Part shown: in pieces, positions 21,322 to 55,442 of the stretch
Position numbering within the stretch: the stretch's first letter is position 1
Layout: each line of letters starts with the position of its first letter
Assembly: GCA_951406725.2 (NCBI GenBank)
Contig: OX597824.1
Span: 5,208,001 to 5,272,000, forward strand
DNA: 64,000 nucleotides
Source of the DNA: Octopus vulgaris
Lineage: Eukaryota
Reading direction: 5' to 3'
Notes under the pieces: generated by a model
What the model saw: the letters and a program-made list of their open reading frames with translations, nothing else
Databases searched by the model: none
Told to the model about the DNA's origin: nothing
Translations under genes and position numbers: made by a program

Positions 21322-21729
21322 TCTTGGGGTTAGTAGCTCCCACTACGCCATATGCCCACGGGCATATGGCGTAGTGGTTAAGAGCGTGGGCTACTAACCC
21401 CAAGATTCCAATTTCGATTCCAGGCAGTGACCTGAATAATAACAACAACAACAACAACAACAACAACAACAACAACAACAGCAACAACAACAACAACAAC
21501 GACAACAACAATAATAATAATAATAATAATAACAACAACAACATCGAAAAATACCTTAGGAATGAGAACCCAGGTTCATCAGCTGTCCCCACCACACCTG
21601 ATGAAGAAGGCTGGAGGCTATATCAGCCGAAATGTTGTGTTAAAAACAAACAAGATTGAGGACAAATATCCGTCAATTGTAAATAATGTAAATAACGTAC
21701 ACAATTCCTCATCTCTTATATATAGAACT
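21322..21729 (+). mobile_element. tRNA-headed element with inverted 5' duplication, (AAC/AAT)n spacer, HHR and PLE-like tail
   Basis: A box tggcgtagtgg (21367-21377), B-box-like tttcgattcc, palindrome centred at 21358-21359, HHR at 21594-21640; second partial copy at 32011-32151 on the minus strand. Confidence 0.8.
21594..21640 (+). ncRNA. Minimal type I hammerhead ribozyme motif (C3-G8 core), mutated
   Basis: acac-CUGAUGA-agaa-ggcug(loop)cagcc-GAAA-ug-UU-gugu. Confidence 0.7.
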
Positions 21730-22007
21730 CACATATAGATGCATATGTATTTATGTACACGTACACACACATACTGATATCGTTAATTTTCGAACAGGAA
21801 TATATTAATTATGCATACACAAATCACACGTGATTAATTGAGTCATTTTCAACGGAAATAAAAAAAAAAAAAAGGAATGACCGTATGCGTAAATTAGAAA
21901 CAGTCACTGCAACAACTTCCACAATATTGCATTACATTGAATGGTAGAATAATTAGTGGCAGTCATTAATTATTCCATATTTCTCATTACTTGTTAATGA
22001 AGAAGTC

Positions 22008-22200
22008 TGCATCTATCTATCTACCTACCTATCTATCTATCTATCTATCTATCTATCTATCTATCTATCTATCTATCTATCTATCTATCTATCTATCTAT
22101 CTATCTATCTATCTATCTGTGTGTCTGTCTTTCTGTTTGACTGTGTGTCTGTCTGTTTGTCTGTCTGTCTGTTTGTCTGCCTGCCCGTCTGTCTGTCGAT
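22008..22200. repeat. (TATC)n then (TGTC)n microsatellite
   Basis: Direct reading. Confidence 0.95.
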
Positions 22201-51160: not shown

Positions 51161-54100
51161 CATACTCATTTCTAACTGAGATTGAGTACGATACACTTCT
51201 GGTGGATGCGTATGGGCGATTTGATCTAATAATTCATTATAGCTGGAAGGAGAGAAATTCTCGAGATTTGAGCACAAATACAGAACGACGAAATGAATTA
51301 CAAGTCATTTTTGCCATTCCACCACACTAATGAATTTATTAAATTAATAGAAAGAACAATAAAAGTTCGGCAGAGATTTGCTTAAGAACCTACAAACCGA
51401 AAGATCAAGGGTTCGTTTCATGTCTGTGGCAGGGCGTTGTTTAATAGAAGCTGTTTCATCAATTTGGTGTCTTGCAATGAATGATTCCTAATTTAGACAC
51501 AAGGTTAGAATTAGGGTTAGAGTTAGGGTTAGCAATTTTGAGCGGGCAGCAAGCAGACTCGATATCTTCATCTCGACCCCGAAACATGAAAAGAAAAAAT
51601 GAGCTCAGTGTGAATCGAACTCGGAAGAAATGCAGCAAAGTATCTTGCCTGACGTCCTCTCGATCCTGACATCCCGGTGTTTTGTTAATGTGAAATAATA
51701 ACACACATATATGTAGACATTGATAGATTCTTCTTGGATGATTGTCTTACGTAAGGTAACATGTAATTAATACGTTCAGCGGAGCGCATATTACCGAATG
51801 ACGAGGGCAATTCGTTTCAAATAATGGAAAGTTCTCGAAAGAGAAATTTGTCAAAGTGAACCAATATCTTTTGCCGACACTTGGTAGAATTTATATACAT
51901 CAATTAACCACATAAGCAATATATACATACATACAAAATTAATTAGAAAAGTGTAAGATGTTTTATTCATTTTCTGCTTCAGACATCATAATTAATTTGT
52001 TGGTTAATCATTCTTTTGATAGAGGAGGCAGAATAATTTCTCATACATACGCTGTATTATATATATCTTATTAAATTACACACACACACACACACATACA
52101 CACAGACACACACACACAAACAAACAACACACACATATATTCGCATACATACATAGGTGGGTGTATGCGTATATATATTTATGTGTGTGTGTATGTGTGT
52201 GCATACACACACACACACACACCTATAATTATACACACACACACACACACACCTATATTTATATGTGTGTCAGTCTGTGTATATGTAAGGTGAGGTTGAA
52301 TGTTTAAAACGTTCGCCTTGCTAACACAGGGTCCTGGGTTCAATCCTACTGCGTGGAATCAGAAGCAAATGCCATTTTTTAAAGCCTCGTATCGACCCAA
52401 ACATTACGAGGAGCCGGAAACTGTTGATATATGCGCGCACAAACACACACATATATATATATATACACACAAGTATATATATATATAGCCAATGACTACC
52501 CGACGTCATCCACGGTATTCATACAATTGTCGCTAGATCTACCTCAGTAACACCTCAATGTACTTTGAGTACATAACAAATTATAGAGACGGCAAATGGA
52601 ATTTACGAAAAAACTTTATTGCTCGCCACGATCATTTCGATCCATCCGGCATCGATCCCTCACAGGTCAGGATACTCTACAACTGGTTATGGTGCATCCC
52701 TTGGTGTAGACACACACGTATCCTCAAGTGATGTTATAAAGGCGTTAAATAAACTCTGTTTCGGTCGGTTGAAATACAGCATGCTGTTAGTGACATTATG
52801 TCTAAACCGAGGGATGAACCACAACCGTGAGGGATCGATGCCGGATGCGCCAGAATGATAGTTGCGAGCCTAAAAGTTTCTCGTATTTCCTATTTTCCCT
52901 CTCTACCATTTGTTATATACATATATATATATGTATGTATATATATGTATGTATGTATATATATATATATATATATATATATATATATATATATATATAT
53001 ATATGTGTGTGTGTGTGTGTGTATATATATATATATATATATATAGTAGAATAAGAAATAGAAAATCCTTGGTGTAGTATTATATATATATATATATAAT
53101 AATTTTTATAATTGGATTTATATATAAATAAAATACTGAAATATAGGAAAAGATTTTCTATCTATCTATCTATCTATCTATCTATCTATCTATCTATCTA
53201 TCTATCTATCTATCTATCTATCTATGCGTGTGTATGCGCATAGAGAGAGAGAGAGAGAGAGAGAGAGAGAGAGAGAGAGAGATGAGATAATTTGAAGAAG
53301 ACTTCAAATGTTATAACTCAAGCCCAAAGCAACATTCTTTGGGAGTGGGCGGATATTTTTGATTAGACCGACACAGTGCTTAAATGTTTAAATGCTTCTT
53401 TATTTCATGAACTTTAGGAGAAAGAATAGAGTAACAAATTTCAACAAAGTTTGAATTTAGCCCATAAAAATGTGAAACGAACTTCCCTTTCTGCTCCCTT
53501 TGCATTTAACTCTTGCTGAGGGACTGCTGTGGCTACACCACGCTTGATTCCTGACTCTTTCCTTCCCATATTGAATTTATACATTTTGATCTTTTTTCCT
53601 CTTGCTGAACATTTCCACCTCTGCATGTATTTAGCTTGCTTCAAAGATAATTGGCGAACCATTTTACATTTGCAGGAGGGACATGCTACTTCTGTTAATG
53701 CTCAGCGGAGCAAGGTAACCCGCATATATTGATATGCATCTAACAATTTCTAATTATTCCAGTTACGTGTTGATGTAATTGGATGCATGCTAAAACATTT
53801 TGTTAGCATGATATTTCTATGAAGTAGGCAAGGAAAGGAAATAAACTTACTTTTCATATGAAAGGAACCTGGCATGCAACTAATCTAAGACACTTCACCA
53901 CTAAGCGATAACCAGCAAAATGATCTACGTCTCACTAAAAATCAAAGAAATCCATATAGCAAATATCGTCTTAGAAATAAACCCCTTCAACCGGGATATG
54001 TCTTCCATGTCACTGAGATAAGCAATATTTGGATGTTATCAATTAATGACAAGAGAATTCTGGAACCGAATATTACAAGCACATCCATTCATGAGGACAT

Positions 54101-55048
54101 GCAAGCCATTGAAAGGTCTTCATGTCAATGTTAGCTGAACGAAATTAACCCGCTTGAATTCTGAATTTCTAATTGAAATTAGAGATATCTTATTGATCAG
54201 ACCCCACCCCGTCAGTTTTTACATTTTTCACGCCAGAAAATGCTTGAAGTAAAAAATCAACTCGAATGATAAAGAAGCTGCGTGTGTAAATAAATTTGCA
54301 CATATTAACATATAACATCCATGAAGATATTCATATTTGCATGTAATCTTAATTTCTCGTTTTATTTTTAAAATCTATATATGAAAAAGAGGCTGGCTTC
54401 TAAGTATGAAACAAACCGATTTCGCACTATGATGCTCCCGGAATCGAACCGACATAAAAATAAAAAAAATATCGTATCTGAATTCAAATAAAATATTAGT
54501 TCAGTGCTCAGCTAACAGATAAACTTTGCAGAACATATATATATTTAATGTTTGAAAATCTCAGCTCTTTTAGTTTACGATGTAAATAAGTAGTGATTTA
54601 AGTGTACTGACGGTCGTGATGTGATGCAGGGACTAGAAGAAAAAAAAAAGATGAAATGCACCCAACACCAGAGCTGAAGACACCTCCGAAAGAAGGGGTC
54701 CCGCCATGTCGGAAACTGTAGAGGATTAGGGCTGAAACCGAACGTAGTTTCTCCTGATGATGTCTTTAGCGACTGGATCCTATAAAGGAGCTGTTGAGGT
54801 AGCAAACCACGAAACGGTTGGAATTCCTCTGATGTAGTTATCCATAAATAATTTTTTTTACCGATTCAATGACGTCATTTGCTGGGAGCTTAGCTGCACA
54901 AAAGTAAATCATCTTTCTTTTCTGTACGAAACTATTATTATTCAGGTTTGTTGTTTTGCATTTAGTGAATATTTTAATGGGGATATTTCGTTTTTGGATT
55001 TGGTTTGCAAGATTCTTTATATGAGTTCGTGCGTTGAAGCATATTCTA

Positions 55049-55442
55049 TTGTGTCTGGGGAGAGTCATTTTCTTTTTGTGCCTTATTATGTAACACACTC
55101 ACCGGTAAAATTTCCACTGTTTTCTTATTTTTATTGTCCAAAGATTTTCGTTGCGTCTTGCAACCTTTTCATTAGTTTTAAAAAGAATTTCGACGCCAGG
55201 ACACCGGAAAACAGTACCACCATCAACAACAAATACACCTCTGGAATATATGGTGCAGTACAGCTAGATACAGATGAAATGCATGCTTTAGAGTTACCAT
55301 CAAAAGAAAGTCAAAACTATTGAAAAGGTTGCAAGACGCAACGAAAATTTTAGGACAATAAAAATAAGAAAAACGTGGAAATTTTACCGGAGAGTGTGTT
55401 TCATTGAAGGCACAAAAAGAGAATGACTCTCCCCAGACACAA
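55049..55442 (+). mobile_element. Inverted-repeat element (arms about 130 bp, spacer about 133 bp), PLE-type
   Basis: 55049-55179 is the diverged reverse complement of 55313-55442; both arms contain the HHR-like motif. Confidence 0.8.
55317..55353 (+). ncRNA. Minimal type I hammerhead-like motif, U3-A8 variant
   Basis: cua-UUGAAAA-g-guugc(aagac)gcaac-GAAA-au-UU-uag; stem I is only 3 bp. Confidence 0.6.

Follow-up and report, generated by a model that had tools for sequence, protein, structure and literature searches.

Four hammerhead ribozyme motifs are located on the forward strand of a 64,000 nt stretch of the Octopus vulgaris genome (GenBank assembly GCA_951406725.2, contig OX597824.1, positions 5,208,001–5,272,000), referred to here as the window and numbered from its first letter. 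They are best explained as minimal type I hammerheads within the truncated pseudo-long terminal repeats (pLTRs) of Penelope-like elements (PLEs) from four families (A to D), in which the pair between core positions 3 and 8 has been exchanged at the level of the family. The 3–8 pair is a contact within the active hammerhead fold; it is C-G at 21598, C-G at 25025, G-C at 41689 and U-A at 55320. Taken together with the mechanism proposed below, this explanation is given a probability of about 0.72.

Hammerhead motifs in the window

The motifs were first noticed in a reading of the letters without database searches (the sequence-only reading), and all four are recovered at the sites named there by a descriptor that leaves positions 3 and 8 free. 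Each has, in type I order, an N3-UGA-N-N8-A core, stem I, stem II, GAAA, a short helix III and UH. Their extents in the descriptor scan are as follows.

21594..21640, forward strand: family A minimal type I hammerhead with C3-G8; cut predicted after 21636
25021..25063, forward strand: family B minimal hammerhead with C3-G8 and helix III uaauug; cut predicted after 25059; arm 25009–25163
41682..41731, forward strand: family C minimal hammerhead with G3-C8 and helix III auau; cut predicted after 41724
55310..55356, forward strand: family D minimal hammerhead with U3-A8 and helix III au; cut predicted after 55350; arm 55309–55443

Over both strands of the window the free descriptor gives six matches, five of them Watson–Crick at 3–8. 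In 30 block-wise dinucleotide shuffles of the window there were on average 2.6 matches, 0.63 of them paired, and never more than two paired matches in any shuffle. A minus-strand match at 55172 has A-A at 3–8; it belongs to the inverted arm, in mutated form, of the fourth element. Another minus-strand match, at 23654, has G3-C8, a loose stem II and no helix III, and is probably due to chance.

A bulge after A9 and a G10.1-C11.1 pair are seen in A, C and D; stem II of B is closed by U10.1-A11.1 instead of G-C and has no bulge base. Stem I has 7 bp in C, and in D consists of 3 bp, a 4 nt bulge and 3 bp; the bulged base is G in both. Helix III is a very short palindrome: cg in A, caauug or uaauug in B, auau in C and au in D. 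The window copy of A has a 3 nt insertion after A9, and its helix III has decayed from cg to ug. Of the palindromes listed in the sequence-only reading, uaauug, auau and au are present, but cgaucg and ccgg are absent from the four motifs. The latter two occur in the window only as hammerhead 3′ halves lacking the 3–9 strand, at 9551 and 13387; these fragments are truncated PLE stubs belonging to other families.

The window is non-coding DNA rich in microsatellites. Among the best 150 of 420 rows of an Rfam scan of it there are only microsatellite-driven microRNA matches and none at the four motifs. The canonical Rfam hammerhead models gave no match at the gathering score in seven loci, and around motifs A and C none at E values as high as 10.

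Origin in Penelope-like elements

The proposed PLE origin is borne out for A, B, C and D, all of which are tied to open reading frames (ORFs) encoding a reverse transcriptase (RT) and a GIY-YIG endonuclease (EN), with the motif in the pLTR of such an element. In full-length elements the motif follows the EN stop and precedes the start of the next ORF. The hallmarks of PLE insertions are also present: an inverted 5′ copy, a tail on one arm, and an AT-rich or (TA)n target. The parts of the insertions that flank the hammerheads are listed below.

21354..21719, forward strand: family A pLTR, the 3′ untranslated region (UTR) of a Penelope/Poseidon-type PLE; blastn matches it to a copy with RT-EN, at the 3′ end of that copy
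24738..24992, minus strand: family B inverted arm with long tail; its second hammerhead is missing one stem I C
41530..41674, minus strand: short inverted arm of family C, the hammerhead of which has lost 11 nt; adjoins (TA)n
41781..41872, forward strand: first 30 codons of the C ORF, which make up the PLE ‘tail’ of the arm; (TA)n comes next
54983..55179, minus strand: family D inverted arm with long tail (ORF start 55068); core mutated to A3-A8
55186..55305, forward strand: D ORF piece trapped between the arms; 70 % identity over 20 aa to the C ORF, E 4e-8

The EN is C-terminal in A, B, C and K, a relative of C and D described below; the Naiad arrangement (N-terminal GIY-YIG, DKA) was not found. 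Exchange of the 3–8 pair was considered as the cause of the reported lack of hammerheads in Naiads, and finds no support in these families, which are themselves not Naiads.

The parent of family A has an open frame of 569 aa with a Pfam RVT_1 match (E 2.7e-6, below the gathering score). Among 30 loci picked by RT, 12 have the A core about 250–300 nt past the EN stop on the same strand. The missing linker finger suggests a Penelope/Poseidon type, after the description of Craig et al. (2021). The 5′ part of the A pLTR is tRNA-like and is accompanied by an AAT/AAC microsatellite. This tRNA-like segment (window 21360–21432; also in the fetched loci L135, L142 and L129) sits between the EN stop and the hammerhead. 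It carries A-box- and B-box-like words and, by eye, cloverleaf-like stems, and many stubs begin there in the manner of short interspersed nuclear elements; ARAGORN called no tRNA in this part at five loci. A second and more diverged copy of A (77 % identity) lies at 32031–32151 on the minus strand, and a short stretch resembling the D-family ORF start (21291–21311) immediately precedes the A insertion.

The true parent of family C was located through a shared 3′ UTR of approximately 1 kb, rich in (CATA)n, which connects the motif to a frame with RT and C-terminal GIY-YIG. The open frames reach 1025 and 839 aa (Pfam GIY-YIG E 7e-5, above the gathering score). Copies of the EN are 94–98 % identical to one another, and family C is therefore young. 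N-termini homologous to the C ORF start run on into the ORFs of D and K, and ORF-start peptides used as queries for long frames returned mostly stubs. A 525 aa frame behind C in L241 was rejected as the parent, since it results from an accidental joining, via (TA)n, with a different PLE.

At their ends the D arms carry an ORF start with homology to that of C (48 % over 25 aa). The 120 nt inner ORF piece has 50 matches in the genome, many continuing into RT, and decayed D parents are about 45–55 % identical to C in the RT region. The link between D and PLEs is drawn through the ORF-start peptide and the inner ORF piece, the parent being decayed.

The parent of family B was found via upstream sequence, and its ORF is 51 % identical to an intact 778 aa Hydra-like ORF. 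At L425 the B ORF begins approximately 270 nt downstream of the motif and contains DKT and RIKWK motifs. With the Hydra clade of Craig et al. (2021, PMC8557442), the B parent and the 778 aa family (L329) share DKT, an RWK-like motif, (TA)n targets and a C-terminal EN ending in CxxC and CxH; assignment to that clade follows the motif description in the paper and not an alignment to reference sequences. The family with intact 778 aa frames is itself a young Hydra-like PLE with the core CCGAAGA, in which C replaces U4; its stem II is long and its palindrome is cauaug.

L329:1579–1671 and L329:4442–4534, minus strand: hammerheads of the young Hydra-like PLE; also in L330 and L245

The elements had been described as fold-backs. 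This applies to those at 25025, 41689 and 55320, in which the inverted arm holds a damaged second copy of the hammerhead, but not to the hammerhead of the first element (21598), the inverted arm of which spans only the tRNA-like stretch near 21317–21405. The inverted arms of B and C are bordered by (TA)n. Such long inverted arms beside (TA)n could be taken for MITE-like DNA transposons (miniature inverted-repeat transposable elements) with TA targets, the hammerhead match being incidental. However, the centre of the palindrome varies from copy to copy, one arm is longer by 60–75 nt, many copies are single-armed, and both arms end in the ORF start beside (TA)n or AT-rich DNA. Continuation of the arms into RT/GIY-YIG ORFs refutes the transposon reading, which is left with a negligible probability.

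Family-level fixation of the 3–8 pair

A first look at the genome gave 1330 candidates for C, 1141 for B, 1622 for D and 2596 for A, of which 40 were scored for each. The cores are nearly constant within families: G-C in 133/136 for C, U-A in 55/57 for D, C-G in 76/76 for B and C-G in 32/36 for A, most loci in these counts having been fetched by similarity to the window copies. Because the fetched copies were ranked by similarity, loci picked without regard to the core were added. At loci picked by the C EN, GUGAACA is found about 0.9–1.2 kb downstream in 27 of 30; the remaining 3 have none, and no other core occurs. Peptide-picked C loci (n=35) gave 37 GUGAACA, one GUGAGCA and one putative CUGAAGA match, and peptide-picked D loci (n=31) gave 13 UUGAAAA and one GUGAAAA. 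Four public runs coded to four organisms listed no alternative base at ≥5 % at 41689 or 41694, a weak result from contigs of uncertain kind that bears on neither expression nor cleavage.

With positions 3 and 8 masked, 346 matches over 2.0 Mb fell into 22 clusters. The 3–8 pair is Watson–Crick in all eight clusters with multiple loci, and in 8 of the 14 clusters with a single locus. Pairing at 3–8 as a property of the family, and not decay of individual copies, is supported. G5, A6, G12, A13, A14, A15.1, U16.1 and H at position 17 are kept in 14/14 family representatives.

A regular sample of 80 evenly spaced 10 kb stretches (800 kb) contained 19 motifs against 3.45 per shuffle, in keeping with the dense and diverse set of PLE hammerheads that had been proposed. 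Fifteen of the 19 are paired at 3–8 (38 % in the shuffles): 11 are C-G, four are U-A and none is G-C. All eight with a palindromic helix III are paired. The 2.6 matches per shuffled window and the background in the shuffled sample leave room for a reading in which the motifs are chance descriptor matches, or canonical cores decayed copy by copy. That reading is refuted by the four multi-copy families, in which nearly all copies, those picked blind to the core among them, have the same core; hardly any probability remains for it.

It had also been supposed that searches restricted to CUGANGA would overlook such motifs. They do, but for about a quarter and not for most, 11 of the 15 paired motifs in the sample being C3-G8. 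Extrapolated roughly, the genome may hold tens of thousands of intact motifs, around a quarter with an exchanged pair; this share is uncertain because the four sampled U-A motifs represent one further family.

Variation outside the core is most visible in family B. Other B copies have caauug or cgauug as helix III, and among the B subfamilies (L205, L213, L245, L270, L272) stem I is constant, helix III is caauug, uaauug, cgauug or cgaucg, all pairable, and stem II ranges from 16 to 35 nt.

Additional families were seen in the fetched loci. Family E (L195:8692–9381; L191, L198, L378) has U3-A8 and a cgcg palindrome; three copies lie approximately 330–360 nt apart at one locus, resembling a non-LTR retrozyme, and copies are inverted at another. 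No link between family E and an ORF was found in the fetched loci. A distant PLE (L379:3132–5483 and 6241; L255, L251) has U3-A8, a ccgg palindrome and an intact 784 aa frame, and a tail fragment of it lies in the window at 7436–7482. From its GxKF motif we take this PLE to be Neptune-like. Its U3-A8 core, placed on the tree, suggests that U3-A8 arose more than once.

Covariation within the C/D/K clade

The four elements had been regarded as unrelated in sequence. This does not hold for those at 41689 and 55320, which are homologous. Families C, D and K form one clade with SH-aLRT (Shimodaira–Hasegawa-like approximate likelihood ratio test) support of 99 in a quick tree of 17 rows. Family K has intact frames of up to 1312 aa and C3-G8. 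Its core is CUGAUGC, with A9 gone or replaced by C, and its helix III palindrome is imperfect (gaac; L436:360–411 minus strand, and L438).

In an alignment of seven motifs of the clade the 3–8 pair is G-C, U-A, C-G and in one case G-U; in stem II, both partners are exchanged at two pairs. Of 42 cells, 97.6 % are paired, against 14–57 % in slid controls; these counts cover stem II and 3–8, the alignment misplacing stem I of D. The 3–8 pair covaries here among homologues, which is better sequence evidence than four unrelated elements would give.

Cleavage, insertion and dimers

The active fold appears to be under selection. Watson–Crick conservation at 3–8 argues in this direction, and selection for an active hammerhead fold in full-length elements would be the likely reason that the pair is kept. 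Cutting itself would likely be weak, with tandem transcripts acting as dimers joined by the palindromic helix III, or with the protein of the element assisting. By analogy with the lizard element studied by Frangieh et al. (2024), the window copies would be short insertion products: the RT would start at two sites within the first 100 nt of the ORF, and priming from both cut strands would leave head-to-head arms with a tail on one of them. The 5′ ends, which extend past the predicted cut, suggest that insertions are mostly copied from uncut RNA.

The window stubs are probably inert. As computed, the C stub forms one long hairpin (−211 kcal/mol, z −24.7), and this whole-transcript hairpin buries the motif. 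Inverted arms cannot provide a sense partner for a dimer. In isolation, stems I and II form in the predicted folds of motifs C and D (z −2.9 and −2.1).

Several observations weigh against the favoured explanation. The 5′ ends lie within 3 nt of the predicted cut in 0/32 C arms and in 1/28 D arms. Of the C arms, 29 of 32 extend past the cut, 14 of them stopping 53–62 nt upstream of it. With cut RNA as the usual template a pile-up of 5′ ends at the cut would be expected, and none is seen, in agreement with Frangieh et al. (2024). The stops of these 14 C arms, some 20–25 nt before base 3, could reflect either a transcription start or a stop of the RT. Monomer folds of A, B and K are no better than those of shuffles (z about −1). 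Family B is without G10.1-C11.1, and K is without A9 in 2/2 copies despite its intact ORFs; the loss in K, together with U4C in the Hydra-like family, suggests that the demands on the core are loose and that bases can drift in successful elements. The covariation amounts to three families and about two independent events, in a tree from a quick search in which the D rows fill <30 % of columns. Finally, the random sample has a single D-like copy that spans the core, an old one, and it reads U3-G8.

These points bear on a different possibility, in which the motif serves the PLE 5′ leader as a structural or protein-binding element derived from a hammerhead, its fold conserved and cleavage no longer relevant or only marginal. 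Retention of the whole motif by insertions is in keeping with this, as are K without A9 and the Hydra-like family with C4. In the published work, catalytic mutants left insertion unchanged and RNA-seq gave no reads with an end at the cut (Frangieh et al. 2024, PMC11167929), and activity was low even as dimers (Cervera and De la Peña 2014, PMC4209133). However, it is a contact of the active fold, 3–8, that is Watson–Crick in all the multi-locus clusters, and also in K, the B subfamilies and the Hydra-like family, and the eight positions named above, G5 to H17, are kept in every family representative. A purely structural element is considered unlikely, and selection on an active hammerhead remains the preferred explanation.

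The sequence-only reading had further speculated that family-specific cores and palindromes confine dimer cleavage to RNAs of one family. No such role is available to the core: positions 3 and 8 are on one strand even in a double hammerhead, so that the core cannot select a dimer partner. Stem I and helix III form between strands, and from them pairing restricted to the family is predicted. Among the window families the homodimer helix III exceeds every cross pair by ≥4.7 kcal/mol, as calculated with artificial clamps, and cross-family stem I offers 0–3 contiguous pairs. On this basis one could propose that the diversity of stem I and helix III arose as a self/non-self code, each family trans-cleaving only its own RNAs. 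Besides the greater stability of the window homodimers, families with a common palindrome (A and G; E and J) have different stem I sequences. Yet any two diverged palindromes would behave alike, so that no selection is shown, and the clamps used for the energies are artificial. Cross-pairing between close B subfamilies is as good as self-pairing, and the uaauug variant of the window pairs better with caauug than with itself. A cis dimer within one tandem transcript, moreover, requires no code. Diversification as a code is improbable, more so than the structural element.

Other features of the window

Several fragments of other mobile elements lie in the window, with labels that are presumptive: a stretch resembling the RT of a long interspersed nuclear element (11852–12268), what we take to be an R2/R4-type endonuclease end (15122–15454), a presumed Tc1 transposase fragment (32277–32696) and a presumed mariner transposase fragment (40576–41064).

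Comparison with known hammerheads and PLEs

PLE hammerheads cut poorly in vitro and are dispensable for insertion in the one reconstituted system. Homologous mobile families with G-C, U-A and C-G at 3–8 are natural evidence for selection on the active-site pair, and the C/D/K clade offers matched natural substrates together with intact ORFs (C and K). Surveys of hammerheads should leave positions 3 and 8 free. The finding does not alter what hammerheads or PLEs are. A far-reaching version would have one clade passing through C-G, U-A and G-C while mobile, C as the first natural high-copy G3-C8 family, all of these hammerheads as active, protein-assisted ribozymes with trans-cleavage confined to the family by stem I and helix III, and PLE hammerheads as undercounted by CUGANGA-bound searches, perhaps also in clades reported without them; as a whole this is doubtful.

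Earlier work on minimal PLE hammerheads (Cervera and De la Peña 2014, PMC4209133) already describes the A9 bulge, a palindromic helix III, two motifs per element on opposite strands, and U3-A8. The metazoan PLE motifs of that study resemble those described here in being type I with a short stem I, an extra base between 9 and 10.1 and G10.1-C11.1. They also share the palindromic helix III, the location in the pLTR, the presence of many families per genome, and opposite-strand dual motifs 100–700 bp apart. U3-A8 is found there in the Cercyon elements of Schistosoma, with about 1,300 matches in that genus, plus a row from a hemichordate. Among the rows examined of its 56-motif alignment there is no G3-C8, unlike family C. 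No cephalopod was found among the genomes analysed there, ‘octopus’ being absent from supplement file 2, and the portions of the paper available to us report no clade with three pair types.

Natural covariation of the 3–8 pair is likewise described by Perreault et al. (2011, PMC3088659), the section concerned giving only U3-A8, in motifs that are not from PLEs. PLE inverted copies, tails and (TA)n targets are described by Craig et al. (2021, PMC8557442). Families C, D and K, with a C-terminal EN and a CX3CxxC linker, are of Neptune or Nematis type in the terms of that paper, unlike Naiads.

The closest experimental counterpart is PAc, the Poseidon element of the lizard Anolis carolinensis (Frangieh et al. 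2024, PMC11167929), in which both target strands are cut and extended and reverse transcription begins at two sites within the start of the ORF, producing the tail. Unprocessed RNA was the main substrate, and cleavage required the protein. As here, the motif lies at the pLTR–ORF junction and the target is AT-rich. An engineered C3G/G8C change in PAc partly rescues the single mutants. In PMC3884650, as far as the available text goes, a G3-C8 variant appears only as a construct. No natural G3-C8 hammerhead was found in the literature searched, coverage of which is incomplete, and an earlier description is possible. Every other structural feature is already in print, and G3-C8 is known as an engineered rescue. 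What is likely to be new, as judged from sequence, is a young high-copy family fixed for G3-C8, together with three pair types in one clade. The pair that is an engineered double mutant in PAc is the natural state of young family C.

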